A stretch of DNA of 64,000 nucleotides from an uncultured virus (IMG/VR IMGVR_UViG_3300038427_000461) (taxonomy: Duplodnaviria; Heunggongvirae; Uroviricota; Caudoviricetes): IMG/VR virus record IMGVR_UViG_3300038427_000461; one strand, given 5' to 3'. The notes beneath the pieces were generated by a model. That model did not search any database and was not told where the DNA came from. It saw only the letters and a list, made by a program, of their open reading frames with translations. The first letter of the stretch is position 1. Every line of letters begins with the position of its first letter. A program made the translations under genes and the position numbers. This document shows positions 5,801 through 22,501 of this stretch, piece by piece.

Positions 5801-5810
5801 CGGTCTCCTC

Positions 5811-6065: not shown

Positions 6066-6072
6066 CGGTAGG

Positions 6073-6102: not shown

Positions 6103-6104
6103 GT

Positions 6105-6407: not shown

Positions 6408-6434
6408 GGAGCACCACCTCTCTGAGGTGGAAGG

Positions 6435-7205: not shown

Positions 7206-7301
7206 CCGGGGAGCCTGCCCCGGGCTTGCACGCCGGGTCAAGCTTTGTTGAACTACGGGCCGGCGCACACGCGAGCACACCCGCGCCGAAGACGAGTCCA
7301 C

Positions 7302-7685: not shown

Positions 7686-7773
7686 AGCGGCTGCTCCTCA
7701 CCGTCCTCGCGCTCGTCGCCGCTCTGTTCGTCGGCGGTGGCGCGGCGTTCGTCTGCGTCCGGCTCGGGATCCG

Positions 7774-8166
7774 CTAACCGCGAAGCTCCAGGGCCTGCAC
7801 GAGCCAGGTGATGAGCGTGTCGGTCCGCTCCCCATTCTCTGATCGCGCCTGCATCTCCGTCATCGCGCTCCATCGTCGCTCTACGGAGGCACCACAACTC
7901 CCGCCGTTGGCCTCCAAGAACGTAGAGAGCGCCGCCCAGCCACTGCGCTTGTTGCCGTCCATGAAGACGTGCCCCTGGACGATGTACACGGCGTAGGCTG
8001 CCGCGATCTCAGGCACCGACTCGTAGTACGAGTTGTTGACGGACTGCACGGCAGCCTCTACCCCCTCGTAATTGGCTCCACGGTGACCGCCGCCCTCTTC
8101 GCCACCCCACTTCTCCAGAAGCACTTCGTGCATGCGGACCACGAGGGCCGCAGACAGGAACATCAT
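7774..8166 (-). CDS. doc: Doc/Fic family toxin
   Basis: HVFMDGNKRSG Fic/Doc motif. Confidence 0.9.
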   Translation of the reverse strand: MMFLSAALVVRMHEVLLEKWGGEEGGGHRGANYEGVEAAVQSVNNSYYESVPEIAAAYAVYIVQGHVFMDGNKRSGWAALSTFLEANGGSCGASVERRWSAMTEMQARSENGERTDTLITWLVQALELRG

Positions 8167-8447
8167 CGGCGCCTACGGCTGGGCGACGACGCGTCGTGCC
8201 CGCGGCCCTCGTCGTAATCCGCGAGCGCCTTGAATACGGGCGCCTCGCGCCGCAGTACGGCGGCGAAGGCTCGTTGAAAGACCTGCTCGCTCATGGTGCT
8301 GTCCGTCGGCTCGATCACGAGCTGCCGCCCTACGATGGACAACCGGATGGGCGTACCGCTCTGCACCCCCATCGCCTCCGCGATGTCCCGGGGGATGAGC
8401 ACGCCGAGGCTCCCCCCGATCTTGGTGACGTGTCGCTCGATGGTCAT
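8163..8447 (-). CDS. AbrB/MazE-type antitoxin
   Basis: VTKIGGSLGVLIPRDIAEAMGV..G..I.L......LVIEP; ATGA overlap with doc; TATAAT 7 nt upstream. Confidence 0.88.
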   Translation of the reverse strand: MTIERHVTKIGGSLGVLIPRDIAEAMGVQSGTPIRLSIVGRQLVIEPTDSTMSEQVFQRAFAAVLRREAPVFKALADYDEGRGHDASSPSRRRR

Positions 8448-8543
8448 GCCGTAGATTATACGTGCGTAGTATCTCGACGCCAGCACAAGATTCCTTCCCA
8501 TCCCGCAACCTGGCCCCGCGTTCCGGTGGTACGCTCTCCTCCC

Positions 8544-8768
8544 GTGGAAACGATCTCCCGCGGCGGCCGAACAGTCCGTGGCTTCGCGCTCGGCGATGCG
8601 GGCGAGACGGGTGGGGGCAGCGGCACCGTGGCGCTGGCGGCGGCGATGACCGGCGCCGCCGTGGGCCTGCTCACGCACGCGCTCAAGGTCCCGCTATGGG
8701 GGAGCGTCCTGGCGGGAGCGGGGGCCGTGCTGGTCACGAAGGTCGGCATCGACCGAGCGGCCGCATGA
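8544..8768 (+). CDS. Small two-helix membrane protein
   Basis: Hydrophobic Gly/Ala-rich segments; TGgTACGCT -10 upstream; ATGA-coupled to next gene. Confidence 0.5.
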   Translation: METISRGGRTVRGFALGDAGETGGGSGTVALAAAMTGAAVGLLTHALKVPLWGSVLAGAGAVLVTKVGIDRAAA

Positions 8769-9106
8769 CGAAGGAGACGACGATGATCACCCGCCGTGAC
8801 GCACTCCTCGCATCTGCTGCGCTGCCGCTCGCGGCCGCCGTCATCGACGCACCGCTGACCCAGGACGAGTTGCGGGTCCTGGCCATGACCGCCACACCGA
8901 GTGAGGTGTGGGAGGATCGAGAGCACGAATACTACGAGAACCGCATCGCTGCCCCCGGCACGGAACCGCATCGAATCGTCCGTGACCTGGAGACGAGGGG
9001 GCTGGTCATGCGGACAGAGACTCCGTGGCGGAGCGATATGCAGTGGGTTGCTGAGGCGACGCCGGCCGGGATCGAAGCGCTTCGCAGGGCCGGCATCGAA
9101 GTATGA
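8765..9106 (+). CDS. Hypothetical protein, possible winged-HTH C-terminus
   Basis: LETRGLV...ATPAGIEAL pattern; coupled overlaps on both sides. Confidence 0.45.
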   Translation: MTKETTMITRRDALLASAALPLAAAVIDAPLTQDELRVLAMTATPSEVWEDREHEYYENRIAAPGTEPHRIVRDLETRGLVMRTETPWRSDMQWVAEATPAGIEALRRAGIEV

Positions 9107-9516
9107 GCGGCTTCTCCTACCTCCTCTCCGACGGTCGACTCGCGCAGGGCAGCGCCCCGCCTCCGGGCATCCGCCTGCCGTTCGACGTCATCGTGCTCGC
9201 GGCCGAGGAGTACCAGCACCCCCGCTTGCCCGGCTACGAGGTCCTGCGCGTGCCGCTCGACGACAGCGGGCCGCCGCCGTCGGTGGCCGACCGCGCGCTC
9301 ATCCGCGAGAGCGCGCGCCGGATCGCGCGCCGGGTGCGCGCGGGCAAGAGAGTTCTCGTCACGTGCTGGCAGGGCCGCAACCGTTCCGGCGTCCTCGCGG
9401 GACTCGCGCTCGTCGAGCTGGGGGTGCCGCGGAATCAGGCGGTTCGACGCATCCAGCAACTGCGGGACGGCCTGACGAACGCGTACTTCCGCGCGATGGT
9501 CCGGGGGACACTCTGA
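9103..9516 (+). CDS. Dual-specificity / tyrosine phosphatase family protein
   Basis: CX5R P-loop VLVTCWQGRNRSG and upstream PLDD acid loop. Confidence 0.85.
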   Translation: MSGFSYLLSDGRLAQGSAPPPGIRLPFDVIVLAAEEYQHPRLPGYEVLRVPLDDSGPPPSVADRALIRESARRIARRVRAGKRVLVTCWQGRNRSGVLAGLALVELGVPRNQAVRRIQQLRDGLTNAYFRAMVRGTL

Positions 9517-9609
9517 ACCCCCTCCGGCTGCTCGCCTGGCTGCTCGTCCTCGTCGCGGAGTGCTGAGCGACTTGACCGACACCTCTTGTGCGACTACATT
9601 TTCAGGACC

Positions 9610-9819
9610 ATGCGGCTCACCGTCACGATCGATCGAGAAGAGGACGGCCGGTACATCGGCGAGGTCACCGAGCTGTCCGGTTGCCTCGTCTACGGAGCGA
9701 CCCGAGCCGAGGCAGACGCGCGCGCCCGCGCGCTCGCTCTCCACATCCTGGCGGACGAGGTGGAGTACGGCGAGCGGAGCGCGCGGTCCGTCTCGGACCT
9801 GTACTTCGAGGCGGCGTGA
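9610..9819 (+). CDS. hicB: HicB family antitoxin
   Basis: REEDGRYIGEVTELSGCLVYGATRAEA; promoter TTGACC-17-TACATT upstream. Confidence 0.88.
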   Translation: MRLTVTIDREEDGRYIGEVTELSGCLVYGATRAEADARARALALHILADEVEYGERSARSVSDLYFEAA

Positions 9820-10028
9820 GCCACTGGGCGGCCACGCGCGCGCCGCGCGTGCTCGCAGCGCTCTTGCATATCGGCTGGGTCGTCACCAGGCAGCGGGGAT
9901 CGCACCGACGACTGGAGCGGGATGGCTGGGCCCCTACGAGCTTCTCGTTCCACGACAAGGAAGAGATCGGCCCGAAGATGCTGGCGAAGATCGCCAAGGA
10001 GACCGGACTCAAGCCGGAGGATCTCTGA
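9816..10028 (+). CDS. hicA: HicA family mRNA interferase toxin
   Basis: LLHIGW...RQRGSHRRL, FHDKEEIGPKMLAKIAK.TGL. Confidence 0.9.
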   Translation: MSHWAATRAPRVLAALLHIGWVVTRQRGSHRRLERDGWAPTSFSFHDKEEIGPKMLAKIAKETGLKPEDL

Positions 10029-10231
10029 TGGCTGCGCCGCGATCGATGTCCCTGCGCGAGGCCAAGGCGCGCCTGAGCGAAGCGGTCGACGCGGCGCAGG
10101 GGGCGTTCGTGCTGATCACCCGGCACGGTCGACCGGCGGCCGTCCTGCTGGGGGTCGAGGGGCGCGACGTCCTCGACGTGATGAGGGAGTTCGAGAAGCC
10201 GCCGAAGCCCCGCCGTCGCAGAGCCGCCTGA
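10028..10231 (+). CDS. Phd/YefM family antitoxin (orphan)
   Basis: SLREAKARLSEAVD......VLITRHGRPAAVL; no cognate toxin downstream. Confidence 0.85.
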   Translation: MAAPRSMSLREAKARLSEAVDAAQGAFVLITRHGRPAAVLLGVEGRDVLDVMREFEKPPKPRRRRAA

Positions 10232-10257
10232 CAAGATCTCGCGCGGCCCCAAATGAA

Positions 10258-10295
10258 CGAGACCCCGCCCGGCCGCTCGGCCGGACGGGGTCTCG
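10258..10295. terminator. Strong GC hairpin between convergent genes
   Basis: cgagaccccg...cggggtctcg with inner ccg pairing. Confidence 0.6.
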
Positions 10296-10323
10296 TGGAT
10301 GCCCTGACCTCTACTTCATGGCG

Positions 10324-10560
10324 CTACCCTCGTGGCGCTCGGCCACTATGACTTTCAAGCTCGGAGCCTACCGCGCCTTCCGCGTCCAGGGCAACCAACC
10401 GCTCACCGAGAGCTGCCTCTGCGCGCTGTTCACGCCGCTCTGCGCGCTCCACGTTCCGCCTGTGCCAATCGACGCGGATCGCTGGGTTGCAGAAGCTGCA
10501 AGACGGTCCGCACGGGTAGCGTCGAAATTTCCCGCGCCTTGAGTTTCGAGAACGGCTCAT
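10324..10560 (-). CDS. Small basic protein with C-x3-C-x2-C motif
   Basis: AGGAGG RBS upstream; CGPSCSFC. Confidence 0.55.
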   Translation of the reverse strand: MSRSRNSRRGKFRRYPCGPSCSFCNPAIRVDWHRRNVERAERREQRAEAALGERLVALDAEGAVGSELESHSGRAPRG

Positions 10561-10633
10561 TGTAGTGACCTCCTAGTGGCACTACAGGTGGTCATCCTCC
10601 TTTGCGCGGCTGCTCATGGGCGTACCGTAGCAC

Positions 10634-11020
10634 TCAAGGAGCCCCCATAGTCCACCGCTCGCCCGGCGGCACGCCGACGACCACCGGCGTCTCGTGCCAG
10701 AGGCTCGGCTCGCGCGAGCCGTCCGGTCGCTCGGCGCCCACGACGTCGACCGACGGCGACACCTGCCAGTCGCGCTCCGCGGTGCGCGTGAGGCCCCACG
10801 TCCGCCGGCCGCTCGGACCGGTCTCGAGGTACGGGCCGTTCGGGTTCACCGGCACGCCCACGTAGAACGGCTCGCCGGTGTCCGCGCGACGCACCCAGGT
10901 CCAGAGCTGCCACCACGCGCGGCCCTCCCCGTCGCGGGCACCGCGGACCGTGCACTCGCCGAGCGCGAGGTCGCCGATCCGGTCCACGGGGCGGTAGACG
11001 AGGACGCTCACGCTTGTCAC
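10634..11020 (-). CDS. Hypothetical protein, weak DUF6527-like resemblance
   Basis: CAGGAG RBS then GTG; W.L......W.VSPSV....WH pattern. Confidence 0.4.
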   Translation of the reverse strand: MTSVSVLVYRPVDRIGDLALGECTVRGARDGEGRAWWQLWTWVRRADTGEPFYVGVPVNPNGPYLETGPSGRRTWGLTRTAERDWQVSPSVDVVGAERPDGSREPSLWHETPVVVGVPPGERWTMGAP

Positions 11021-11071
11021 CAGCTCCTGGAGGTGTAGCCTAGAGCCTCCTCCTGCTTTCCTGGTGCAGGG

Positions 11072-11107
11072 CCGAGGCCGCCTGTCATGGGGCGGCTTCG
11101 GTTTTTT
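11072..11107 (+). terminator. Intrinsic terminator immediately upstream of the acidic array
   Basis: ccgaggccgcc-loop-ggcggcttcgg followed by a T-run. Confidence 0.75.
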
Positions 11108-11170
11108 GTGGCCCTTGCGCGGCGCCCCGGGGGGTGCGATGCTGGCCTCGACAAGATAAGGAGACGTCGA

Positions 11171-11569
11171 ATGGCCACCCGCAATCGGGTCGTCGAGGTC
11201 GCGCGCAAACGTCCTGCACCGGAGGTGCAAGAGATCCGCGTGCGCGTCATGCCCGACGAGGACCCGGACACGTCGTTCCTGGACCAGGACGAGTTCGCAG
11301 ACCGCAAGGAGGCGTACGACCGCGGGGACTTCGCCTTCGTCGGTGTGCGCGCGGAGGCCGACGTGGTCATCGAGGGCCTCGTCCAGACGCTCACGAGCGG
11401 GGGGCTCTACGGCATCGAGAGCGACTCGGACGAGGCGTACGTCGAGGACGTGGCCCTCGAAGAGTACGACGCCCTGCGCGACGTCCTGAAGGCGGTCGGG
11501 GTGTCGACGGCGCAGGTGCCGGTGGGCACGCGCGAGACGATCAAGCCGCTCATCAAGTGGGAGGTGTGA
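11171..11569 (+). CDS. Acidic phage protein (array gene 1)
   Basis: AAGGAG RBS; D/E rich; GGLYGIESDSD motif. Confidence 0.75.
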   Translation: MATRNRVVEVARKRPAPEVQEIRVRVMPDEDPDTSFLDQDEFADRKEAYDRGDFAFVGVRAEADVVIEGLVQTLTSGGLYGIESDSDEAYVEDVALEEYDALRDVLKAVGVSTAQVPVGTRETIKPLIKWEV

Positions 11570-11570
11570 G

Positions 11571-12137
11571 GTGGCAATCGAGCAGGATACCGAGAACAGC
11601 AGCATCTTCATCGACACCGAGCCGGTGGCAGCGCCCGAACCAGAAGACGAGGGGGTGCACGTCTACGCATACGCGCGCTTCCGGTCGCTGGAGCACGTCG
11701 CCTACGGCCTCTATCGCACGACCGGCGGCCCGAGGGACGAGGAGATCGACTCCGAAGCGGTCGGCCAGTACGGCATGGAGCCGCTCGCGCCGTACTGGGA
11801 GTTCAAGGACGCGCTGAAAGAAGTCCGGGGCGACTCCAAGTTCGCGTTCGAGGAAGTGCCGTACGTCGAGGTCGCATCAGAAGACGACTACGACGAAGCG
11901 GTGGACGCGATCGACCCCGACTTCGTCGACAGCGGAGAGCCCACCGGCTGGGAGAAGCCCGGCCTCTACGACTTCCGCGACAGCCCGCCGTCGTTCCAGG
12001 GCTCGGTCGAGGACTACGAGCTGGACGAGATGAAGCGCGCGGCCGACGACGCCATCGAGTTCATGTTCCAGGGTGACGAGTGGGAAGACGCGTTCACGTC
12101 GCTGGCTCACTCGGTCGCTGCACCGGAGGAGGACTGA
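11571..12137 (+). CDS. Highly acidic protein (array gene 2)
   Basis: GGAGG RBS; very D/E rich. Confidence 0.75.
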   Translation: MAIEQDTENSSIFIDTEPVAAPEPEDEGVHVYAYARFRSLEHVAYGLYRTTGGPRDEEIDSEAVGQYGMEPLAPYWEFKDALKEVRGDSKFAFEEVPYVEVASEDDYDEAVDAIDPDFVDSGEPTGWEKPGLYDFRDSPPSFQGSVEDYELDEMKRAADDAIEFMFQGDEWEDAFTSLAHSVAAPEED

Positions 12138-12140
12138 GCC

Positions 12141-12827
12141 ATGCCCCGCAAGAAGAAGCTCGAGGTCGACTTCACCGACGAGGACTCGGTGCTCGCCGAG
12201 ATGGCCGGAGCGCTCGACATCGACCCCGACGAGCTGAAGATCAAGGACGACCGGTCCGGCTTCTCCGTCCAGGCGTACGAGGTCACCACCCGCGGCGGGC
12301 GCAAGGAGTGGAGGGTCGTCGAGAACGAGGACGCCGAGCGCGAGCTGGCCCTCGAGATTGTCAAGCAGGACCTCGACGACCAGCCGGAAATGTTCGAGCA
12401 GTCGTTCATCGAGTCGCACATCAACATCGACCGGCTGCGTCGAGACCTCGAGAGCGACGTGCAGTACGGCAACGAGGAGCGGCTGCGCGACGAGCGCCCC
12501 GACGACTTCTGGAAGGAGTACGAACGCGAGGGGTTCGACGCGCCGGAAGAGGACGAGGACGGCAATCGACGCGATCCCGAGGACTCGGAGATCGAGGAAC
12601 TCGCCAGCAGCCAGACTGAGAGCGAACTCGAGGACCCGATGCAGTACCTCGAAGACATCTACGGCAAGGAGGACGCCGTCAAGAAGGCAATCGAGATCGC
12701 CGGATTCGACATCGACGCCGCCGCCGAGGAGGCCGTCGACACGGACGGTGCGTCGCACTTCCTCTCGTCGTACGACGGCAACTCGTACACGACCGACGGG
12801 GGCCTCGTGTACTGGAGGGTGAACTGA
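12141..12827 (+). CDS. Highly acidic protein (array gene 3), DNA-mimic-like composition
   Basis: D/E-rich helices; DGASHFLSSYDG C-terminal motif. Confidence 0.75.
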   Translation: MPRKKKLEVDFTDEDSVLAEMAGALDIDPDELKIKDDRSGFSVQAYEVTTRGGRKEWRVVENEDAERELALEIVKQDLDDQPEMFEQSFIESHINIDRLRRDLESDVQYGNEERLRDERPDDFWKEYEREGFDAPEEDEDGNRRDPEDSEIEELASSQTESELEDPMQYLEDIYGKEDAVKKAIEIAGFDIDAAAEEAVDTDGASHFLSSYDGNSYTTDGGLVYWRVN

Positions 12828-13876
12828 TGGCTTCCCGACGCAGGCAACAGCACCTCCCCGGCATCGAGCCGGGTGACGAGCCGCTCGAGGTCGTCATCCC
12901 GACGATGGAGTGGCAGCAGATCGGCGGGGACATGAGCCCCGAGACGTACGGCGGGACCATCGCCACCGCCGACGGGAACTCCATCGAGCTGATCCGGATC
13001 GACCCGGTGCGCGAGGCCATCGGCGACAGGGAGGCGGCCGAGGTGGGCTTCCCGTTCTGGACGAAGGAGGCGTACTTCGACCTCGCCGACCTCGACCCGA
13101 GCAGCGAAGAGGTCAAGAGCGCCATGCAGACCGTCGGCCTGGAACGGGAGGCGCTCGAGGAGATGGAGCCCACCCAGCGCGCGGTCGCCATCGCGGAGGC
13201 GCTGCTCGACTACGGACGCGGTGACCCGGGCCCCTCCGGGTGGTCGACGGACATCAACATCCCCGAGAAGGTGAAGTGGTGGGGCGACAAGGTCGCCGGG
13301 GCTGAGTACCTCGCGGGCGAGGACGAGGCGTTCCGGGACGACGTGCTCGGCTACGGCGAGATCAAGACGGCGCTCGAGGAGACGATCGAGCGGATGGTCG
13401 ACGAGAGCGCGGCCGAGGGCTGGGGGACGCCGGGCGACCAGCTCGTGAGTGACCTGGAAGACGAGGGGTTCGACCCCGAGTCGATCGTCGTCGAGGCCAA
13501 CTTCGGCGACGCGGTGACGGTCAACGGGGACGTGCTCGTCGGACCCGGCTGGGCGGGCACCCTCGGCGTGAAGTCCACCGACCTCTGGAGCGAGGTCGGC
13601 ACCGACAAGCTCACCGACTGGCTCGACGCGAACGGCTACGAGTACCTCGACAAGTCGGGCGGCCGCGTGCCGACGACCGAGGGCTACGCGCACGCCGAGC
13701 ACGTCATCGACGCGGTCGCGGAGGAACTCGGCCGCGACCGCGAGGACGTCGAGAAAGCGGCCGAGTCGATCGACGGGTGGCAGGAGGAGATCCCCGGCTC
13801 GTCGTCCGGCATGACGTACGTGTGGGCGAAGAAGAAGGCCGGCGTCGAAGAGCGCCGGCACACGAGGAGACGCTGA
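12827..13876 (+). CDS. Acidic multidomain protein (array gene 4)
   Basis: TGATG coupling; ends VEERRHTRRR. Confidence 0.75.
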   Translation: MASRRRQQHLPGIEPGDEPLEVVIPTMEWQQIGGDMSPETYGGTIATADGNSIELIRIDPVREAIGDREAAEVGFPFWTKEAYFDLADLDPSSEEVKSAMQTVGLEREALEEMEPTQRAVAIAEALLDYGRGDPGPSGWSTDINIPEKVKWWGDKVAGAEYLAGEDEAFRDDVLGYGEIKTALEETIERMVDESAAEGWGTPGDQLVSDLEDEGFDPESIVVEANFGDAVTVNGDVLVGPGWAGTLGVKSTDLWSEVGTDKLTDWLDANGYEYLDKSGGRVPTTEGYAHAEHVIDAVAEELGRDREDVEKAAESIDGWQEEIPGSSSGMTYVWAKKKAGVEERRHTRRR

Positions 13877-14352
13877 TGCCGCGCAAAGCAATCACGGACA
13901 TGATCGGGGAGCTGCGCTCGTGGCTCCCGAACTACGACCACGGGCCGGAAGACTTCCCGACGCTCTTCTGGCGCGTCCTGGCGAGCCTCCCCGGCGGCGA
14001 CGAGGCGGCCGACATGGGCTACGAGGCGTTCAATCTCGGCTGGAAGGAAGCCGAGCTGCTGGGGGACACCCTGAACGCCATCCAGGACGCGAGCGACGTC
14101 CAGGACCTCATCGCGGGCCTCCTCCGCGACGAGGAGGAGGTCGAGGAGCGGCGCCGGCGACGACCCGTGCAGGAGGTGCGGCGCAACCCGATGGCGCGGG
14201 CGCCAGCGCGGCCGATCAAGCTCGACTGGGGCGTGCTCCCCGACGAGCGGGGCAACCCGCCCGCCGGCGCGAGGCGACGTCCCGCGCCCCCGCCCCCTCG
14301 CGCACCGAGACGGGCTCCACCCCCTCCCCCCCGCAGCCGACGGGGGCGATGA
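13876..14352 (+). CDS. Acidic domain plus Arg/Pro tail (array gene 5)
   Basis: TGATG coupling; EEVEERRRRR then Pro/Arg-rich tail. Confidence 0.7.
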   Translation: MPRKAITDMIGELRSWLPNYDHGPEDFPTLFWRVLASLPGGDEAADMGYEAFNLGWKEAELLGDTLNAIQDASDVQDLIAGLLRDEEEVEERRRRRPVQEVRRNPMARAPARPIKLDWGVLPDERGNPPAGARRRPAPPPPRAPRRAPPPPPRSRRGR

Positions 14353-15428
14353 TGGCCCGCAAACCGGACGAGGCAGACGCCGGGTTCGCGATCGGCGTCT
14401 ACGACCAGGGGATGATCGAGTCGAACGCGGACGTACAGTTCGGTCTCGGCCGACACGTCGACCCCCGAGACCGCGCGTGGGCCGAAGAAGAAGGGCTCTT
14501 CAACAACGACAGCGGCACCAAGGAGGGGACCATCACTGCCAAGGGATGGGACCTCCTGAACGACGACATCGCGAAGATCGAGAAGAACGCGATGGCGTGG
14601 ATGAAGCGCAAGTTCCTCGACGCGCGCGACGAGGGGCATGGCGGTCACGGCGGCGAAGAGCTGATCGGCACTTTCTGGTTCGACCCGCGCAATGCGGACC
14701 AGGCGCAGCTCGTCGACCTCGCCGCCGACACCGGCCGCCAGGAGCGCATCGACTTCGTGGACACGAGCTTCGGCGACTTCGGCGACACGGCCTTCGACGG
14801 CGTGAGTAAGTTCGGTGGGCTCATCCTGGGCGGCGGGATCACGTTCTTCGACGTGAAGCCCGAGGACATGGAGGTCGTCGAGGACACGCTCTGGCGCGCC
14901 AGCCACGGCGGGCGGCCGCTAGAGCGGGGGCAGCGGGCGCAGGAAGCGTCGCGTCGTCCCCGTGGCGGCTGGTGGGTCCACTGGAACAACCAGACGGAGA
15001 ACGGTCCCTTCGACTCCCGGTCCGAGGCGAAGACGTACGCCGACTACTGGCGCGGACAGAGCCGCGGGAAGCTGACGTTCAAGATCGACCAAGTCCCCGG
15101 ACATGACGAGCGGAGCGGGCCTCGACCGGCAACGGTGTCGGCGCCATCCGCTCGACAGAGCGACTGGGAGGTCGTCGTCGGCAACATCGGATCCGTCTAC
15201 CGAGGGGGGAGAAGCGACGAGGCGGTCTCCACCTACCGGGAGTACGTCAAACAGAGCCAGAGCGGACGGGGACGTGCGGGCGGCGAACCGGTCACGCTCT
15301 TCCGGGACGGCGAGATCTACCGCGAACACATGGGGAGCAACGAAGGCGTCGAGGAGCGTCGCCCCCGCCGCCCACCACCCCCACGACCGACGTCGCGACG
15401 CCGACCGCCGCCGGCGAGGAGACGCTGA
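14349..15428 (+). CDS. Polyvalent multidomain protein (array gene 6)
   Basis: ATGA coupling; includes WEVVVGNIGSVY...GRAGGEPVTLFRDGEI domain and a GPF..R.EA domain. Confidence 0.75.
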   Translation: MMARKPDEADAGFAIGVYDQGMIESNADVQFGLGRHVDPRDRAWAEEEGLFNNDSGTKEGTITAKGWDLLNDDIAKIEKNAMAWMKRKFLDARDEGHGGHGGEELIGTFWFDPRNADQAQLVDLAADTGRQERIDFVDTSFGDFGDTAFDGVSKFGGLILGGGITFFDVKPEDMEVVEDTLWRASHGGRPLERGQRAQEASRRPRGGWWVHWNNQTENGPFDSRSEAKTYADYWRGQSRGKLTFKIDQVPGHDERSGPRPATVSAPSARQSDWEVVVGNIGSVYRGGRSDEAVSTYREYVKQSQSGRGRAGGEPVTLFRDGEIYREHMGSNEGVEERRPRRPPPPRPTSRRRPPPARRR

Positions 15429-16414
15429 TGCCCCGCCAACGACTCGACGCGTTCACCCAGGCGTACATCGGGGCCATGCTCTGGGCCGAGACCGACAACA
15501 GCGACGACCAGGGTGGCGACCCCCTCGACAAGAACTACGGCCCCGAAGACATCGATCCCGAGACGATGGAACTGATCGTCGAGGACTGCGCTGACTTCCA
15601 GAATCGCTACGCCGACCTGCTCAGCGACAGCGGGATCGAGGACGAACAAGCCGGACACGACTTCTGGTTGAGCAGGGGCGGTCACGGAAGCGGCTTCTTC
15701 GATGAAGACTCCATCGACGAGGAGTTCCAGGATCCCCTACAGGAGGCCGCCGAGTCGTACGGCGAGTTCGATCTGACCGTCGATGACGGCGTCATCTACG
15801 GGCCCGGAGCCGACTGGTACCGCAAGCACCACCCTCGCGGCGACGTCAGTGAGGCTCGCCGCCCGGCGTTCCGCCCAGCCACGAGAGCCCGCGAGCCGAA
15901 GTACCGACCGCCGCACGTCCGTCCCGGACCCACCCCACGCGACATGCCGACCGAGAACATCGGCTGGCGCGAGATCCCACCGGGCTCGAAGGTCGAGCTG
16001 GTCGGCCACTCCTACGTCGTGACGCTGCCCGACGGCACGCGAGCGAGCGCGTACTGGATGGGTAACGATGCGGCGGAGGCGCAGCGGAAGCTGAACAGCA
16101 TGGTGCGGACCGGCCAGTCCCCGAGACGGTCAAACCGACCATCGGTGCGAGAAGCGCAGGGATTGCGGAGCTTGCAATTTCACATCCCACCGATCAACCG
16201 GAACCAGACCATAGAGGTCGCGTATGCTCTCACCCCGGAGGGTCTAATCGAGCGCACGTTCGACCAGTCCGATCGCTCGACTTCGTACCGCATCCACGAC
16301 TGGACACGAGCGCTCGAAGGTTTCAACGACCCGTGGAACAGACCACCACCGAAGATGAGCGGGTGGAAAGACATCTCCGCGAAGAATCTCGATGCCCTCG
16401 TGAAAGGACAGTGA
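15428..16414 (+). CDS. Polyvalent multidomain protein (array gene 7)
   Basis: N-terminal AGHDFWLSRGGHGSGFFD domain, then VSEARR and VREAQ linkers. Confidence 0.75.
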   Translation: MPRQRLDAFTQAYIGAMLWAETDNSDDQGGDPLDKNYGPEDIDPETMELIVEDCADFQNRYADLLSDSGIEDEQAGHDFWLSRGGHGSGFFDEDSIDEEFQDPLQEAAESYGEFDLTVDDGVIYGPGADWYRKHHPRGDVSEARRPAFRPATRAREPKYRPPHVRPGPTPRDMPTENIGWREIPPGSKVELVGHSYVVTLPDGTRASAYWMGNDAAEAQRKLNSMVRTGQSPRRSNRPSVREAQGLRSLQFHIPPINRNQTIEVAYALTPEGLIERTFDQSDRSTSYRIHDWTRALEGFNDPWNRPPPKMSGWKDISAKNLDALVKGQ

Positions 16415-17508
16415 CGATGCGATCCCGCTCCCGCCGCCTGCGCGCCACTCGCCGCGTCGTCGCCGACTTCAACACGCTCCCCGAGCTGATCGAGCACGCC
16501 AAGACGGTCGACGGCGCCAGCCACATCCTCATCCTCGGCACGCAGGTGAAGCTCTACTTCCCGCTCGACAACGGGCGGTACGACGTGGGCACGGTCTGGC
16601 AGGAGCACGGCTACTGGCACGCCCCGGCGAAGTCAGCCCGCACCGTCGTGACCCGCCTGCCCGCCGGCGCCGAACCGATCGGGTCGCACACCCAGCGGGT
16701 CGGGCGACGGGCGGGCGAGGCGCGCCGACGCCGCGAGCCCACGGGCCCCAGCATCACCGGCGCGATGCAGCTCGCCGACGAGCTGTCGCAGGAGCTGCAC
16801 GGCTCCAAACCGAAGGAGCTTCCAGGCGGCTTCCGCTGGAGTGAGCACAACGAGGCGGCGCAGTTCACGACCCATAGCCCCGAGTACAGCGCGAAGGTCG
16901 TCGTCGTCGTCTCGATCTTCGAGGACGCCACGGTCGCCGTCGACTTCTTCTCCGACGAGTACCTGTCCGAGACCCAGCGGTACGAGAACATCGCGCACTT
17001 CCTGTACGAGACCACCTCCGACCTCCCGGAGATGCTCAAGGACATCCAGTGGGTGTGGGAGACGGTCGACGGGTACGCGGAGAGCTGGCAGGAGGACGGG
17101 GGCGAAGAGGTGGACGAGGCTCGCAAAAGTAAAGCGAGTCGAACTCCTGCCGCCGGCGACATAACCGACGACACGTCGATCGTCCCCGAGGCCGTGGCAG
17201 ACAGCGTGCTCGATGAGGTGCAGCGATACCTCGGACAGGAGATCCCAAACTCGCGAGACCTCTCGAACTCGTTGGCCGACGATGCACGCAGGATCTACGC
17301 GAACTCGACTCACTACCAAAAGAAGCTTCGCTCGAAGGATGGCCTAGATTGGGCCTACAGTTTCATGCGGCACTGGGTCGCTTCGAGGCTCCAGAAGGAA
17401 TACCCGAACCTGTACGCTCGTCTGCCACGATCATTCGCCAATGGGGAGCCGCTCCCCGAAGCGAGAGCGACCGTTCAGGCGCGCCGACGCACCAGGAGCG
17501 GTCGATGA
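16411..17508 (+). CDS. Polyvalent multidomain protein (array gene 8)
   Basis: GTGA coupling; linkers AGEARRRR, VDEARK, LPEAR. Confidence 0.75.
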   Translation: MTMRSRSRRLRATRRVVADFNTLPELIEHAKTVDGASHILILGTQVKLYFPLDNGRYDVGTVWQEHGYWHAPAKSARTVVTRLPAGAEPIGSHTQRVGRRAGEARRRREPTGPSITGAMQLADELSQELHGSKPKELPGGFRWSEHNEAAQFTTHSPEYSAKVVVVVSIFEDATVAVDFFSDEYLSETQRYENIAHFLYETTSDLPEMLKDIQWVWETVDGYAESWQEDGGEEVDEARKSKASRTPAAGDITDDTSIVPEAVADSVLDEVQRYLGQEIPNSRDLSNSLADDARRIYANSTHYQKKLRSKDGLDWAYSFMRHWVASRLQKEYPNLYARLPRSFANGEPLPEARATVQARRRTRSGR

Positions 17509-18893
17509 GCCGCCCCCGTCGCCACGTCCGCGCCGCGCCGGCCGAGCAGGTCGGCTGGGGGATGCACGTCGGCTGGATGGACGCGTACGTCTACGCGGCC
17601 GATCTGTATTGCGAGGACTGCGGTCGGGCGATCCAGGACGAGCTGAAAGACGATGGCCACGAGGACACCGGAGACAGCGAGGAGTACCCGCAGGGCCCGT
17701 ACCCGGACGGCGGCGGCGAGTCCGACGGCCCGGCGCACTGCGGCGCGGACGCGAAGTGCATCAACGCGATGACGCTCGCCGGCGTCACGATCGGCGCGTG
17801 GCTCGGCAACCCGCTCACCGAGGAGGGCGTCCGGTACCTCCAGGAGATGCTCGACGCGCCGAACCCGAGCCCGTACCAGCGAGCACTGCACGACTTCTGG
17901 CGGCGGGTCTACGCGGACTACCTGCCGAAGGAGGAGGACGGCGGCGAGGTGGACGAGGCGCGGCGAGAGCACCTGTACGTCTGGCAGATCACGTTGCAGG
18001 TGACATCTCCCGAACGCCCCAACCTGCGCCACGATCGCCAGTACCGCGTGCAGGCACTCTCCGGCGATCGAGAGGGAGCCATCGCCAAAGCGAAAGCCAT
18101 CGCAGAACGTGACGGGCTCACGGTCGTTGACGTGACCGGAGCTGCCAGAGGCTACCGCATCCGCACCGAAGAGCTGAACGAGGCGCACACTGGCCAGAAC
18201 CAGGGTATGAGCGCCACCGCGTTCATCGAGCTGCTCTCGTCGCTGACCCCTCCCGACCGGCAGACGCGCGTCCGGTTCCAGCCGAGTATCGGCGGTGAGC
18301 GCGGCGGCGGCAGCGTCTACGTGAACTTCGTCAACCTCCCGACCAGCGCGGGACGAGCGGGCGGAGGAGCCGAGGCCGAGAACAACCGCGCGTCGTTCTG
18401 GGTCGAGGGATTTCAGTACGACCCCGCCGTCCCCGTCGCGACGGTCAAGGTCGACCAGAGTAGCAACGTCTTCCACCGGCCGTGGCTCGGGGCGCCCGGC
18501 GTCCCGTTCCGCGCGAAGACCGGGTCGCCCGACGCGGTCGCCCGGTACCTGGCCGCGTACCTGGAGAAGGTCGTCGCGACGGTGCTGCCACGCTTCACGC
18601 ACACCGCGCGCGAGCGCAGGCGCACGCGCGAAGCACGCCAGATCGTCCAGCGCTTCCTCGTTGACGACTACGTGGTGATGAGTGACGACGCGATCTCGAA
18701 CTACGGCGACCAGTGGCGCGACGTCGTGCTCGTCATTACACACGTCGCCACAAGCCACGACGACCATCCTGGATTCGACCCGAGCAGCGGTAGCGCGCTC
18801 TACGACTTCATCGTGGACAATACCGGCAAGCACGGCGCTATGTCGCTCTACGACTGGGAGCTAGAGCCGGCTCCGCGGAGGAATCGTCGATGA
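17505..18893 (+). CDS. Polyvalent multidomain protein (array gene 9)
   Basis: ATGA coupling; ADLYCEDC...ESDGPAHC domain; linkers VDEARR, LNEAH, TREAR. Confidence 0.75.
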   Translation: MSRPRRHVRAAPAEQVGWGMHVGWMDAYVYAADLYCEDCGRAIQDELKDDGHEDTGDSEEYPQGPYPDGGGESDGPAHCGADAKCINAMTLAGVTIGAWLGNPLTEEGVRYLQEMLDAPNPSPYQRALHDFWRRVYADYLPKEEDGGEVDEARREHLYVWQITLQVTSPERPNLRHDRQYRVQALSGDREGAIAKAKAIAERDGLTVVDVTGAARGYRIRTEELNEAHTGQNQGMSATAFIELLSSLTPPDRQTRVRFQPSIGGERGGGSVYVNFVNLPTSAGRAGGGAEAENNRASFWVEGFQYDPAVPVATVKVDQSSNVFHRPWLGAPGVPFRAKTGSPDAVARYLAAYLEKVVATVLPRFTHTARERRRTREARQIVQRFLVDDYVVMSDDAISNYGDQWRDVVLVITHVATSHDDHPGFDPSSGSALYDFIVDNTGKHGAMSLYDWELEPAPRRNRR

Positions 18894-20467
18894 GCCGTCC
18901 CGAACCGCTGTACCGCTACCTCGCCCTCTCGCAGGAGTCCTACAACTCGATGCTGGCCGGCGAGGAGGACGGTGGCTCGTGGGAGGGCCCGTTCGTGACC
19001 GAGGACGACGCGCGCCAGTTCGTCGAGAGCGAGTACGGCGTGACGGCGATGGTCGTGGACCTCGGCGAGGCGGGGGCGCGAGAGTGGAACCGCCTGACCG
19101 ACGAGGGGTCCACGCCGAGTGAGCTGGCAGACCTGCTGCGCCAGGGCACGGTGCTCGGGGTGCACGTGGCGGATGGCGGGTGGGAGCAAGCGATGGAGGA
19201 AGCCGTGAACCGACGCAAACCGAAGCGCGCGACGAAGCGCGAGCCCACGCCCGAAGAGGAGGGCCAGCAGGTCCTCGTGGACGCCGCAAAAGCCGGCGCC
19301 GACTACGCCAAGGACCAGGTGGGCGGTTCGTATTTCCGCGACTGGGTCTGGGAGCAGATGGTCGAGGGCGAGGCGATGAGGAAGCGCGACCCGGCGAGCG
19401 TCATCCCGCTCGAGACGCCGAGCGACGCGAAGAAGCTCGCCCGCAACATGTTGCAGCAGCTCGAGTGGGACACCAAGCGCGACATGGAGGCGAGCGCGAT
19501 CCTCGAGCTGTCCGGCGCCAAGGGCGTCTTCGACGTCGGCAGCGCCGACTGGGTGCGGGACAAGTACGGCATCACCTACGAGGAGGTGAGTGATAATTTC
19601 TTCGACGCCTTCGTCGAGGAGCTGAAGAACCCGATCACCGTCCACTGGCTGACCGACCTCGTCCTGACGGACCTCGACGAGGTGCGCGGTACCCCGAAGA
19701 GCAAGGTGGTAGCGCGAGAACGTCCGACGGTTCGCGCCGACCGACAGTCCATGCTCAGCACGTCGGCCGACATGAAGTGGCTGCGCGACGTACACCTGCC
19801 CGACCTGGACTTGAAGAAGTACCGCTCGGCCGTCCTGCACGGGAACGAGGACTACCCCACCCGGATCGAGGTCTACACGAGTCGGAATCCGACCGTCGAT
19901 GATCGACCCGTGACGTACGAACCGGACAGCGAGGGGAAGTACCACCCGATCGGTGGCGGCGTGAGCGAGGCCCGACGGCGCCGACCGATAGTGCGCGGCG
20001 ACGCGCACAAAAAACTCGTGTTCGCCGCCAGCTCGCGCGGCGGCAAGTACCGCGTCGAGGTCTACGATGATGGTGACGGCACGTTCAGCTACCGCACGTT
20101 CACTTCGTCGTCGGGGACTGGAGGGGGCGCCAGCCAACCGCTCAGCACGATGCGCGACCGTGCTCGGAAGTTCGTGTCGGGCGAGTGGGATGGTGTGAAG
20201 TACAGCACGGTCGAGCGCGACGACCTCGGGTGGTTGAAGTCAGCCGGACACGCCAGCGAGTCTCGCCGCCCCGTCGTCCGCGACTACGTCGCCGTCGACC
20301 CGCGAGGCCGCAAGGTCGCGGGCCCCTTCACCGACTACGGCGACGCGAAGCGGGAGGCCGACCGCGCGCGCGGCTTCGTCCGGTTCGCGTCCGGGACCCG
20401 CGAGGCCTCGCGGCCGCCGGCGAGGGGACGGGCACGGGTGTCGAGACCGCGGCGGCCGACGCGCTGA
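18890..20467 (+). CDS. Polyvalent multidomain protein (array gene 10)
   Basis: ATGA coupling; linkers MEEAVNRR, VSEARRRR, ASESRR, TREASR. Confidence 0.75.
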   Translation: MSRPEPLYRYLALSQESYNSMLAGEEDGGSWEGPFVTEDDARQFVESEYGVTAMVVDLGEAGAREWNRLTDEGSTPSELADLLRQGTVLGVHVADGGWEQAMEEAVNRRKPKRATKREPTPEEEGQQVLVDAAKAGADYAKDQVGGSYFRDWVWEQMVEGEAMRKRDPASVIPLETPSDAKKLARNMLQQLEWDTKRDMEASAILELSGAKGVFDVGSADWVRDKYGITYEEVSDNFFDAFVEELKNPITVHWLTDLVLTDLDEVRGTPKSKVVARERPTVRADRQSMLSTSADMKWLRDVHLPDLDLKKYRSAVLHGNEDYPTRIEVYTSRNPTVDDRPVTYEPDSEGKYHPIGGGVSEARRRRPIVRGDAHKKLVFAASSRGGKYRVEVYDDGDGTFSYRTFTSSSGTGGGASQPLSTMRDRARKFVSGEWDGVKYSTVERDDLGWLKSAGHASESRRPVVRDYVAVDPRGRKVAGPFTDYGDAKREADRARGFVRFASGTREASRPPARGRARVSRPRRPTR

Positions 20468-20496
20468 GCTTCTCCTGGCGTGGTAACCTGTCCCGC

Positions 20497-20940
20497 ATGG
20501 AACGCCGGTCCCTGCTCAAGTCGCTGCTGCTGTCCCCGCTCGCATTCTTGCGACCGAAGCAGCCAGGCGGCGAGGCGGGTACTCGACTGACGGGTATCCG
20601 GCAGTACGTCGAGCTGAACAATATACAGCTACCCCACGAGGTGCCGTACGGTGCCGACCTCCGCACCGGCGATGGGGAGTGCTTGCCCGAGGTGCGGTGG
20701 GACTCGCTCAGCGAGGAAGAGCAGCGCGTGCTCACCTTCGCGTCGACTGCGTTCGACGGGAATGCAGGAGCCGTGTTCCCGATCACCAGGCAAAACGCCA
20801 GAAGTAGGGCGCAAGACCGGCTGTACCGACTGGGCCTCTTGACCTTCACGTCGAAGGTGCCGGATCACAAGTTCGACTTGTGCGGCTGGTACACCATCTC
20901 GCACTACGGCCGCGGGATCGTGCCGGCGAACGTCGGCTGA
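20497..20940 (+). CDS. Hypothetical protein
   Basis: TGgTAACCT -10 7 nt before ATG; MERRSLLK start. Confidence 0.5.
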   Translation: MERRSLLKSLLLSPLAFLRPKQPGGEAGTRLTGIRQYVELNNIQLPHEVPYGADLRTGDGECLPEVRWDSLSEEEQRVLTFASTAFDGNAGAVFPITRQNARSRAQDRLYRLGLLTFTSKVPDHKFDLCGWYTISHYGRGIVPANVG

Positions 20941-20946
20941 AACGCG

Positions 20947-21174
20947 ATGCGGATCCTCACCGACGAAGAGCGAACGGCCCTCGTCGAGGTCGGCCCTCCC
21001 GGCGATGGGCCCGTGTCCGACGCGACCTTCGCGGAGCTGGCCGCGCTCGGGTGGGGGTACTGGGCCGTCGGCCCGAGCCTCTGGGACCGCCTGACCCGGC
21101 AGCGGTACTGGTACGTCACGGCCGCGGGGCGCGCCGCGCTCGAGTACGACCGGCTCGCGCGACTTACACCGTGA
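20947..21174 (+). CDS. Small winged-HTH-like protein
   Basis: LT.EER.AL...F.ELAALG...YVTAAGRAAL. Confidence 0.45.
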   Translation: MRILTDEERTALVEVGPPGDGPVSDATFAELAALGWGYWAVGPSLWDRLTRQRYWYVTAAGRAALEYDRLARLTP

Positions 21175-21463
21175 CGACGCGACGAACGGTACGAAGATCC
21201 GTGTCCGACTCCGCCAACCGAAGCTCGTAGCTCTGCTGCATGTTGAGCCAGAACTCGGGCGTGGTACCGAAGGCGCGAGCGAGCCGCAGCGCGGTGTCGG
21301 CCGTCACTGCGCGCTCACCGACGACGATTGAACTGACGCGGTTCGCGGGCACGCCGATGGCGTGCGCGAGCGCGTTCGCGCTCATCCCGAGAGGGACGAG
21401 GTACTCCTCGCGGAGGATCTCACCGGGGTGGATGGGGCGCATGGCGTTTCTTGGGGCAGGCAT
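21164..21463 (-). CDS. higA: HigA (VapI) family antitoxin
   Basis: PIHPGEILREEYL.PLGMSANALA.AIGVPANRVS.IV.G.RAVTADTALRLARAFGTTPEFWLNMQ. Confidence 0.93.
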   Translation of the reverse strand: MPAPRNAMRPIHPGEILREEYLVPLGMSANALAHAIGVPANRVSSIVVGERAVTADTALRLARAFGTTPEFWLNMQQSYELRLAESDTDLRTVRRVVTV

Positions 21464-21476
21464 GACGAGACTCCTA

Positions 21477-21590
21477 TCAGTGGTAGTCGACGACCTCGAC
21501 ATCTTCAGGACCCGTAGGGGTCCAGCGAAAGCACACGCGGAACTGGTCGTTGACTCGGATCGAGTGTTGCCCCACCCGATCCTTGCTGAG
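21477..21590 (-). pseudogene. higB: HigB toxin C-terminal remnant
   Basis: Manual translation gives LSKDRVGQHSIRVNDQFRVCFRWTPTGPEDVEVVDYH*; N-terminal half absent; in-frame TGA at 21612-21614. Confidence 0.85.
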
Positions 21591-21611
21591 CGGACGCTGT
21601 CGACCGAGGCG

Positions 21612-21947
21612 TCAGCCGCTCGGGAAGCACGCGCACACGGTCGCGCCCCTGGTCTGGCACGACTGCCCCGCCGGGCACCGCCCGCCGCACACGTGGGCCC
21701 TGTCGAACGCGCAGGAGGCGCCCGCGTCAGGCTCCACGCACGCGCACACCGTGGGGCTCGGGGAGGTGCACTGCTGGGTGCCCGGGCACGTCCCGCCGCA
21801 CGTCCCCGCGTCACTGAAGCCGCACGTGACGGTGGGCGGAGGAGGGGGAGGCTGCGGGGGCGTCGGCGGGCACCCGAGCGCCAGCGCGACGAGGACGAGG
21901 CCGGCCGAGACCCAGCCGACCAGGAAACCGCGGACGTCCGGGTTCAT
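21612..21947 (-). CDS. Cys-rich lipoprotein with DAG motifs (myxobacterial style)
   Basis: Lipobox LALGC, Pro linker, two CGG.CP..Q.C......CAC repeats, SDAG/PDAG. Confidence 0.7.
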   Translation of the reverse strand: MNPDVRGFLVGWVSAGLVLVALALGCPPTPPQPPPPPPTVTCGFSDAGTCGGTCPGTQQCTSPSPTVCACVEPDAGASCAFDRAHVCGGRCPAGQSCQTRGATVCACFPSG

Positions 21948-22249
21948 CGCCGTCTCCCTCGGAGAGGAGGTCGCCCCCGACGAGCTTCGAGGACCGGCCG
22001 CGCCGCGGGCTCCTCGTCGCCCTTGATGATCGTCACGTCGCCGCTCTCGATCGCCCCGAGCACCATCCCGGCGGTCTCGACCGCGTGCTGCGCGTTGCGA
22101 GCCGGGAAGGTCACGCGCATCAGCTCCTGCGCCCACGGCTGCGGCCCGTACGGACCGGCGCTCATCGCGCGCAGCCCGAGCATCCGTTCGAGCCGCTCCA
22201 CGGAGCCCGCGTCGTGTCGGAAGACTGCGTCGACCTGGTAGTGGCGCAT
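21944..22249 (-). CDS. Hypothetical protein
   Basis: Closely packed in operon; ATGA overlap with downstream gene. Confidence 0.45.
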   Translation of the reverse strand: MRHYQVDAVFRHDAGSVERLERMLGLRAMSAGPYGPQPWAQELMRVTFPARNAQHAVETAGMVLGAIESGDVTIIKGDEEPAARPVLEARRGRPPLRGRRR

Positions 22250-22252
22250 CGC

Positions 22253-22501
22253 TCACCTCGCTCCCGCGTCGCAGGGTACCCCGCAGCTCACGACCGTCCC
22301 GCCATTGCCGAGGCACGTCGCCCACGCGGGCGCCGCGTCGCTCGCCAGCTCGGCGGTGACGCTCGCGAGCCCCGAGTCCGAGGCCGCCATGCACCCGCCG
22401 TCGACCAGCGCCCCGTAGGCGTACGCGGCCCCCGAGTGCGCCGGTTGCGGCGGCGTGGTGGTGCAGGCCACCGCGGCGAGCGCGAGCGCGGCGAGCCTCA
22501 C
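22253..22501 (-). CDS. Small lipoprotein
   Basis: GTGA overlap; LAALALAAVAC lipobox; ends CDAGAR. Confidence 0.6.
   Translation of the reverse strand: MRLAALALAAVACTTTPPQPAHSGAAYAYGALVDGGCMAASDSGLASVTAELASDAAPAWATCLGNGGTVVSCGVPCDAGAR

Follow-up and report, generated by a model that had tools for sequence, protein, structure and literature searches.

Results

Ten coupled genes in an uncultivated peat phage

We analyzed a 64-kb stretch of DNA from an uncultured virus (IMG/VR record IMGVR_UViG_3300038427_000461; here called the window), which has ~67% G+C and a phage-like gene set. At 11171-20467 it carries an array of ten genes (g1 to g10), and the proteins encoded from g4 on share a short peptide, here called the tag, with the consensus [A/V]-x-E-[A/S]-R-R followed by 5 to 30 Arg/Pro-rich residues (Table 1). 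The window belongs to an uncultivated peat phage of ~123 kb: peat metagenome runs contain near-identical DNA (of 12 such runs listed, none offered RNA), and the cluster containing g10 itself sits on a 122,965-bp contig. Two relatives from IMG/VR, G001 (124,600 bp, with terminal repeats) and G002 (117,665 bp), are both complete according to CheckV and show ~70 to 83% nucleotide identity to the window over the shared parts, which are rearranged. A third complete relative, G003, measures 111 kb, and its g3 is only 53% identical; genomes of the lineage are ~110 to 125 kb in size. A megablast search of the array against 50,697 phage records gave no match.

The ten open reading frames (ORFs) have high G+C content at third codon positions (GC3) and form one translationally coupled operon of accessory proteins. 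A preliminary description of this DNA had presented ten co-oriented, coupled genes, of which the orientation (all on the plus strand) and six stop-start overlaps hold: TGATG at g3/g4, g4/g5, and g6/g7, and ATGA at g5/g6, g8/g9, and g9/g10. The other three junctions are gaps of 1 nucleotide (nt; g1/g2), 3 nt (g2/g3), and 2 nt (g7/g8), the last of which would turn into a GTGA overlap with an alternative GTG start at 16411. The same description had called the array acidic, which fits g1 to g4 strongly (isoelectric point [pI] of 4.05 to 4.36) and g6 to g10 mildly (4.88 to 6.29) but not g5, which is basic (9.37). A sigma-70 promoter scan returned 0 sites, terminator-like sites numbered 4 versus 4.5 expected, and an Rfam scan of 10000-22500 had no match.

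The proteins encoded by g4 to g10 are built of small, mostly acidic modules that fold separately, with one to five per protein and ~20 in all; independent data underlie the parse of g9 and g10 only. All 16 motif strings quoted in the preliminary description were found, with one occurrence each. The N termini of the array proteins read MPRK.. or MSRP.., and no x-x-E leader is common to them; tags lie internally or at C termini, and those without a module behind them occur in g4, g6, g8, and g10 as well as in many homologues. In G002, a tag links a small extra module to the C terminus of a membrane protein outside the array.

Table 1. Positions of the array genes, the tag sites, and other features of the window, with the Arg-repeat proteins of related loci (aa, amino acids; pLDDT, predicted local distance difference test; HTH, helix-turn-helix)
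Feature	Coordinates	Strand	Description
g1	11171..11569	+	132 aa, pI 4.36; tag-free; kept in relatives
g2	11571..12137	+	188 aa, pI 4.05; tag-free; different acidic gene in its place in L001 and L002
g3	12141..12827	+	228 aa, pI 4.13; tag-free; most widely retained gene of the array (32 metagenome loci)
g4	12827..13876	+	349 aa; single acidic module plus C-terminal tag
g5	13876..14352	+	158 aa, pI 9.37; one module (~1-87) plus 70-aa Arg/Pro tail
g6	14349..15428	+	359 aa; ~3 modules (parsed without independent data); missing from L001 and L002; first part related to an L042 protein
g7	15428..16414	+	328 aa; N-terminal module 1-121 is phrog_1915 (E 8e-23), then two further modules
g8	16417..17508	+	363 aa; ~3 modules; joined to other modules in L001, L002, and L042
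g9	17505..18893	+	462 aa; basic 24-aa extension plus modules A 25-145, B 151-223, C 231-370, and D 380-458 (phrog_34111)
g10	18890..20467	+	525 aa; five modules; helical module 111-270 common to 46 homologues
Tag VEERRH	13844..13861	+	g4; seven residues after Glu, then stop; last Arg codons AGG AGA are the g5 Shine-Dalgarno
Tag EVEERRRRR	14137..14163	+	g5
Tag AQEASRR	14937..14957	+	g6
Tag GVEERRPRR	15345..15371	+	g6; Pro/Arg tail from here to stop
Tag DVSEARRP	15842..15865	+	g7; immediately past end of phrog_1915 module
Tag SVREAQ (weak)	16142..16159	+	g7
Tag AGEARRRR	16711..16734	+	g8
Tag EVDEARK	17107..17127	+	g8; 34-nt DNA repeat partner of g9 tag (82% identity)
Tag LPEAR (weak)	17452..17466	+	g8; basic tail after it
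Tag EVDEARR	17946..17966	+	g9, A/B border; pLDDT <50
Tag LNEAH (weak)	18174..18188	+	g9, B/C border; block pLDDT 51
Tag TREAR	18624..18638	+	g9, C/D border; modeled helix, pLDDT ~74
Tag MEEAVNRR (weak)	19193..19216	+	g10; at occupancy jump 105/106; block pLDDT 53-61
Tag GVSEARRRR	19958..19984	+	g10; pLDDT <50
Tag ASESRR	20252..20269	+	g10; precedes small VRDY..GPF module; pLDDT <50
Tag TREASR	20396..20413	+	g10; starts basic C-terminal tail; pLDDT <50
101-aa ORF outside the operon	21944..22249	-	Same tag at its end (..PVLEARRGRPPLRGRRR); no homologue in G001 or G002
Beta-helix protein with K1-lyase C-terminal domain	633-2753		
Glycoside-hydrolase-like protein	3066-3707		
Toxin-antitoxin/signaling island	3715-10231		BrnT + HTH protein; MqsA-like antitoxin; receiver-domain protein; Fic/Doc + MazE-like
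Same island, continued	3715-10231		Dual-specificity-phosphatase-like protein; HicB-like (weak) + HicA pair; Phd/YefM-like antitoxin
Arg-repeat protein, L009	1411-4422	-	
Arg-repeat protein, L014	4856-8242	+	
Arg-repeat protein, L062	1297-2958	+	

The tag is enriched and kept at the peptide level

The motif singled out in the preliminary description proved to be enriched when measured against shuffled sequences and against other ORFs. The word E[ASE]RR occurs 8 times in the array (shuffle mean of 0.8, maximum of 4 in 300 shuffles) and only twice in 87 other candidate ORFs of the window (16,802 aa), a set that, like the other such sets used here, was filtered by GC3 and includes some spurious frames. 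The relatives showed the same excess, with 4 occurrences versus 0.3 in G001 and 5 versus 0.6 in G002, and the control words D[AS]RR, [AS]ERR, and RR[AS]E were not enriched. Furthermore, when 4-mers occurring at least four times in the ten proteins were collected with no prior motif, the only ones found were PPPP, ARRR, RRRP, EARR, and RRRR.

We then built a logo from the 39 array proteins and 46 homologues of g10, which together supplied 68 distinct contexts. Ala or Val stood two residues before the Glu in 39 of the 68 contexts, at a position that had not been searched for, versus a background of 0.171 (binomial P value of ~1e-13, with the contexts partly orthologous), and in 7 of 27 motif matches of non-array ORFs. 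Arg or Pro comes after E-[A/S]-R-R, and the 15 residues following the Glu are poor in hydrophobic residues (fraction of 0.147 versus 0.272 overall; 0 of 2,000 random sets were as low).

In five genomes, E[ASE]RR occurs 21 times and is written in 20 different 12-nt codon strings; the DNA is thus free to vary and the peptide is kept, which indicates that selection acts at the peptide level. This count bears directly on an explanation that we consider improbable, namely, that the tag is a by-product of gene joining, in which a cassette would be kept for its ribosome-binding site and stop-start overlap, its short homologies would also allow modules to be shuffled by recombination, and the encoded peptide would be functionless. 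Such a cassette would account for DNA repeats of 23 to 34 nt and 81 to 92% identity at junctions (25 nt at 92% for g4/g5 and g6/g7; 23 nt at 83% for g8/g9 and g9/g10) and at tags (34 nt at 82% for g8 EVDEARK and the g9 tag; another of 26 nt at 81%), for terminal Arg codons AGG AGA that double as the Shine-Dalgarno sequence of the next gene, and for the gain and loss of modules at seams. Moreover, relative G001 encodes a Sak4-like annealing protein, and phage recombinases are reported to accept diverged sequences (PMC2327257). The diversity of codon strings, however, speaks against it, as does the position of the Glu, which lies 7 to 20 codons before the stop and outside any ribosome-binding site, and the motif is retained in the relative whose g3 is only 53% identical.

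Basic C termini are also a property of the array: at least four Arg or Lys residues in the last 8 aa were found in 11 of 21 array ORFs versus 11 of 176 other ORFs across three genomes. Such ends recall the Arg-rich C termini of conjugative type IV secretion substrates, and stretches like SRRPVVR resemble the R-R-x-hydrophobic-hydrophobic pattern of the twin-arginine signal. An export or transfer signal of either kind nevertheless seems to us very improbable: Pfam scans of 83 window and 128 G001 ORFs contained no relaxase or type IV secretion family, a tblastn search of g3 against 72,556 plasmids had no match, and most tags are internal. A twin-arginine signal has R-R at the N terminus before an uncharged hydrophobic stretch; the tags are internal or C-terminal, and the hydrophobic-poor 15 residues after the Glu leave no hydrophobic region (h-region).

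The tag marks module borders

Next, we compared the positions of the motif with the limits of homology. We ran an all-against-all blastp of 39 array proteins from the window and loci L001, L002, L033, and L042, leaving out same-genome pairs and keeping high-scoring segment pairs of at least 35 aa; a breakpoint was defined as a point beyond which both partners run on for at least 20 aa. Among the 88 breakpoints found, 84 were in motif-bearing proteins, and 33 of these 84 lay within 15 aa of a motif, versus 10.6 for random placement (standard deviation of 3.0, maximum of 20 in 1,000).

The homologues of g9 and g10 point the same way. A search of g9 against 1.84 billion representatives gave 1,192 matches; the 150 of them that were listed resolve g9 into its four blocks, each with homologues unrelated to those of the others, and the block borders coincide with EVDEARR, LNEAH, and RERRRTREAR. 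Many of the block-A homologues among the matches listed are free-standing proteins that align from their first residue. Residue 25 of g9 corresponds to the ancestral start Met of module A, and the basic 24-residue head is therefore an addition. For g10, alignment occupancy across 46 homologues jumps at 105/106, ~280, ~455, and ~505, each of which is a tag site; near 280 the window has only a degenerate form, where homologues read ..GEARRP.. or ..HEARRH... In addition, x-x-E with basic residues stands 5 to 9 aa upstream of the VRDY..GPF module in 15 of 21 proteins, at a variable distance between Glu and module. These homologues bear out the preliminary description of chains of unrelated small modules, as do structure models of the same two proteins.

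The AlphaFold model of g9 (100-row alignment, mean pLDDT of 67) has confident modules B and C, a pLDDT of <50 at 138-154, a block mean of 51 at 221-230, and a helix of ~74 at 365-386. The model of g10 (47 rows, mean pLDDT of 73) has confident domains at 111-270, 285-355, and 465-500 and a pLDDT of <50 at 271-283, 357-373, 434-463, and 504-518. The two proteins have seven tag sites. The pLDDT is <50 at four of them, two others fall in blocks of 51 and 61, and the seventh is part of the helix of ~74; no site lies within a core with a pLDDT of ≥80. The models support the placement of the tags at borders, short of proof that the borders are disordered. Taken together, these results show that the motif marks module borders.

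The tag follows the lineage through fusion and fission

G001, G002, G003, L021, L033, and L042 share the format of the window. Outside, among 147 representatives of g9 modules from the wider phage world, a tag is present in only 21, mostly long multimodule proteins with Arg-rich ends; elsewhere these modules are found as small phage genes of their own or combined differently. The 46 g10 homologues contain 2.3 motifs per 1,000 aa. We also examined 17 related loci in which ≥1.5 kb follows the g3 homologue. The strict motif was present in 9 of them (two of which are near-identical to each other, and one of which has a single match that is perhaps due to chance) and absent from 8, including loci with 63 to 64% g3 identity and the 194-kb G004, and so the format is patchy within the wider family. 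These distributions indicate that the tag belongs to the lineage, not to the domain families.

Within the lineage, the tag looks alike before a module in the same frame, before a stop-start (ATGA or TGATG) that leads to the next module, and where no module comes next, and a seam that is an in-frame linker in some genomes is a stop-start overlap in others. L002 has g8 fused with the g9 modules, L042 has g7-like and g8-like parts fused, and P0023 and P0032 have g9 module C joined to the g10 core. In four metagenome runs, relatives differ at the level of modules: 2 of 15 listed joints end at tags (13854 to 13921 and 18616 to 19214), and the rest fall within modules. The joints were called at 85% likeness and mark where similarity ends, and we draw nothing from them.

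Searches for module function

The ten proteins matched no Pfam family at an E value of ≤0.1, and 18 separate modules searched at an E value of ≤5 gave only chance-level rows; no NCBIfam family was found for array proteins or modules. Pfam contains a model for ArdA, and no ArdA row appeared in the scan of the ten proteins. The only significant PHROGs were phrog_1915, phrog_20867, and phrog_34111, families of unknown function. The first of these, the N-terminal module of g7, is free-standing in 56 cultured-phage records, mostly of Caulobacter, Brevundimonas, and enterobacterial phages. In tblastn searches against phages, g10, g3, and g9 module C had no match, and g9 module A had one, in an Erythrobacter phage. 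A search of viral contigs yielded no confirmed relative of g9, and the sole match to g4 in genome contigs, 26 residues in a Spirochaetaceae metagenome-assembled genome, was treated as chance.

Structure-based comparisons were similar. When the g10 profile, g9, and three G001 proteins that are structural candidates were searched by sequence against the PDB, no match had an E value of <0.29, and Foldseek searches of the PDB with the g9 and g10 models gave nothing at ≤0.001. One BFVD row for g10 (6.4e-4) was rejected, as its template modeling score was 0.11. In a wide VIA-align search, the best Z scores, 7.1 for g10 and 7.4 for g9, were within the stated noise range, as were two matches that we give only as leads: g10 284-344 with the Thermus phage protein 2zdj_A (Z of 6.5, root mean square deviation [rmsd] of 1.9, 57 residues aligned) and g9 236-357 with the TriTu immunity protein 7zhm_D (Z of 6.4, rmsd of 3.3, 86 residues aligned). 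In the ESM Atlas, g3 and the N terminus of the Arg-repeat protein described below had only unnamed viral clusters as neighbors. The preliminary description had pictured the modules as anti-defense or host-takeover modules, and in Pfam and NCBIfam none of them matches a known anti-defense family. With no Pfam or NCBIfam family, no PDB relative by sequence, and no convincing fold match, an anti-host or anti-defense role is a guess from context, that is, from an accessory operon, small acidic proteins, and rapid shuffling.

Other genes of the window

The island just upstream of the array is densely packed with toxin-antitoxin and signaling genes (Table 1). The ORF directly after g10 (~20503-20940, plus strand) starts with MERRSLLKSLLLSPLAFL, which by eye resembles a twin-arginine or lipoprotein-type signal; it matches no Pfam family, and its C-terminal part has a G002 homologue. 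The window also encodes ParB, NUDIX, a sigma factor, methylases, and helicases. A second N6/N4 DNA methylase lies at 31559-32914 (plus strand), where the G+C content is lower, a single tRNA-Ala(GGC) gene lies at 40470-40558 (minus strand), and a family-A DNA polymerase is split into two ORFs ~600 nt apart (54664-55494 and 56105-57208, minus strand).

Discussion

Possible processing and loading of the modules

The observations to be explained are the format of the tag, its place at module borders, selection on the peptide, and restriction to one lineage; cutting, virion loading, and any anti-host role are what we infer from them. The reading that we favor, as a serious possibility that falls somewhat short of probable, is that the tag serves both processing and targeting (loading). 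An Arg-rich arm would tether the acidic cargo to nucleic acid or to the particle under assembly, and an endopeptidase cutting after Glu would then release single modules. The basic linkers of the preliminary description are real: linkers and tails together have a net charge of +54 over 217 aa, versus −160 over the remaining 2,257 aa. Where a tag has no module behind it, a spacer is not needed and a removable or binding tail is. A removable tail explains such tags and also the indifference to fusion and fission, since seams that are fused in some relatives and split in others are expected if the products end up separate anyway. The small/hydrophobic-x-Glu shape that Ala or Val at −2 gives to the site also counts in favor of this reading, as does the recurrence of the tag outside the operon, at the end of the 101-aa ORF (Table 1) and in an Arg-repeat protein of the relatives.

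A possible further component is a large Arg-repeat protein of the relatives (550 to 1,130 aa). It has tandem ARRRP(R/K)..RE(T/A) units placed before several membrane helices predicted by eye, and its C-terminal half is rich in His and Pro. It adjoins a gene with a transglutaminase core (two genes off in G001, at L003:3198-3971, minus strand) in which Cys, His, and Asp are invariant among three homologues. The 64 kb of the window contain no homologue of the Arg-repeat protein.

Several points weigh against processing and loading. The preliminary description had likened the tag to the small/hydrophobic-x-E sites of head proteases; the shape of the sequence agrees, but no head protease was recognized, and the best-kept residues of the logo are A, R, and R at +1 to +3, on the primed side, whereas T4-type sites have their determinants at P3 to P1 with a mild P1′ preference, as far as the sources cited below describe them. 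The array proteins have no T4-type N-terminal leader ending in Glu, and g1 to g3 are tag-free. An S77-type protease, an HK97-type capsid protein, a portal, and a classical terminase all went unrecognized in the window, G001, and G002; PF05065 (HK97-type capsid) had no match in the latter two, and PF03420 (prohead protease) had none there at an E value of ≤1, a model that divergent proteases can escape. Structural hints are limited to a baseplate-like protein (phrog_20556, 7e-10), a beta-helix spike, and a HerA/FtsK-like ATPase of 600 aa (38155-39960, minus strand; PF05872, PF01935, and phrog_2666), which is the sole packaging-type match. The presumed structural genes of G001 cluster at ~113 to 124.6 kb and 0.5 to 9 kb. 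The array itself lies in an accessory region behind the toxin-antitoxin island and not among recognizable head genes. In the g9 model, site 374-378 is the one within the helix of ~74, and low pLDDT also occurs in poorly modeled modules (g9 A and D and the start of g10), so that it is not specific to linkers. Finally, the Arg-repeat and transglutaminase-core genes are both present in four of five records and absent from the tag-free G004, a co-occurrence that is confounded by kinship in so few records and counts for little.

Some of these points would suit modules that stay joined like uncleaved beads on a string, a possibility that we rate not far below the first. The tag would then be a flexible basic spacer or tail kept in the mature protein, where it would bind DNA or RNA or balance acidic charge, with E-A-R-R as a binding motif for a common partner. 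Conservation beyond the Glu is in line with such a motif, as is the failure to find a head-maturation protease of a known family in G001 and G002. So is the opposite charge of linkers and modules, and basic stretches occur at N termini as well, such as the extension of g9 before its ancestral start Met; the Arg-repeat protein with its nearby membrane helices resembles a nucleic-acid-binding region. A plain spacer, however, leaves unexplained why the Glu is invariant with Ala or Val two residues earlier, why some tags are followed by only 7 to 11 residues and a stop, and why fused and split forms interchange freely.

Two other candidates were considered and set aside. A GHKL-ATPase protein ends the array in G002, L018, and L020 (599 aa; L002:10933-12732, plus strand; PF13589, 1.4e-6); it overlaps the last array gene by ATGA and has, by eye, an HExxH motif near its C terminus. 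Its absence from the window and from G001 rules it out as the common protease. Internal translation starts behind the tags were also rejected, as no start codon lies at a proper distance (by eye).

Carrying processing and loading further, we can sketch a scheme that we think unlikely as a whole. A portable code, [A/V]-x-E followed by a cut and then A-R-R and an Arg/Pro arm, would allow any small domain to be inserted in a cargo polyprotein; the arm would enter particle and cell on the DNA; and a Glu-specific protease, possibly the transglutaminase-like cysteine enzyme, would free the modules and chop the Arg-repeat protein into protamine-like peptides, in a lineage whose capsid genes are unrecognizable. 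If true, this would be a bacterial-virus counterpart of the polyprotein and core-protein processing of eukaryotic viruses, readable from sequence.

If the tag is a cut-and-load signal, it offers a rule by which the proteins that these soil and peat viruses process, and perhaps inject, could be listed from sequence, and ~20 modules of unknown function could be tested singly. The tag might also act as a handle for loading foreign proteins, in the manner of the T4 targeting sequence. Even if it is never cut, it represents a lineage-wide linker grammar kept at the peptide level amid module shuffling, fusion, and splitting, and as such it bears on the evolution of phage accessory genes.

Comparison with known systems

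The site of phage T4 gp21 is L/I-x-E, a Glu-Ala bond is cleaved in gp22, and the internal protein IPI is listed as a restriction-enzyme inhibitor (PMC9026906). The T4 internal proteins (IPI to IPIII and Alt) and core proteins are, like those of the array, small proteins with a short peptide tag, cut in T4 after hydrophobic-x-E. The T4 tags, in contrast, are N-terminal leaders of ~10 residues (also C-terminal in Alt) on single-domain genes, whereas those of the array are internal or C-terminal and Arg-rich. In giant phages, many packaged proteins are cut after Glu, and long propeptides are cut several times; the site of SPN3US gp245 is A-x-E, with V favored at P4 and S at P1′ (PMC10052503). The array resembles substrates of the T4 gp21 and phiKZ gp175 type in its small/hydrophobic-x-Glu shape, which is a resemblance of sequence only, and its A/V at −2 and A/S at +1 recall the sites of phiKZ gp175 and SPN3US gp245, with A at P3. 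The substrates of these two phages lose N-terminal propeptides and have neither exchangeable modules nor an Arg run in the site. The lineage of the array also differs from T4 and the giant phages in that no T4-like head genes were recognizable in the window, G001, or G002. The very acidic character of the DNA mimics ArdA and Ocr is found in g1 to g4 only, and the scans placed no array protein in the ArdA family.

The polyvalent proteins of phages and conjugative elements join unrelated modules in one polypeptide and shuffle them rapidly, and peptidase processing prior to delivery or following it has been proposed (Iyer et al. 2017, PMC5512222). The array proteins likewise combine at least two unrelated domains, with four modules in g9 and five in g10. 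Polyvalent proteins carry known effector domains (metallopeptidase, ART, methylase, helicase, ParB-like, and others), often including a zincin-like peptidase, whereas no effector domain was recognized by Pfam in the 18 modules of the array. The main feature of the array, moreover, is its shared junction peptide, and a term search of that source gave no "linker"; within the terms searched, we found no description of a shared junction peptide of this kind in the literature. Lacking the defining features of both, the array would, by analogy, come closest in its workings to the internal proteins that T4 and the giant phages tag and mature by protease, and in its architecture it comes closest to the polyvalent proteins.

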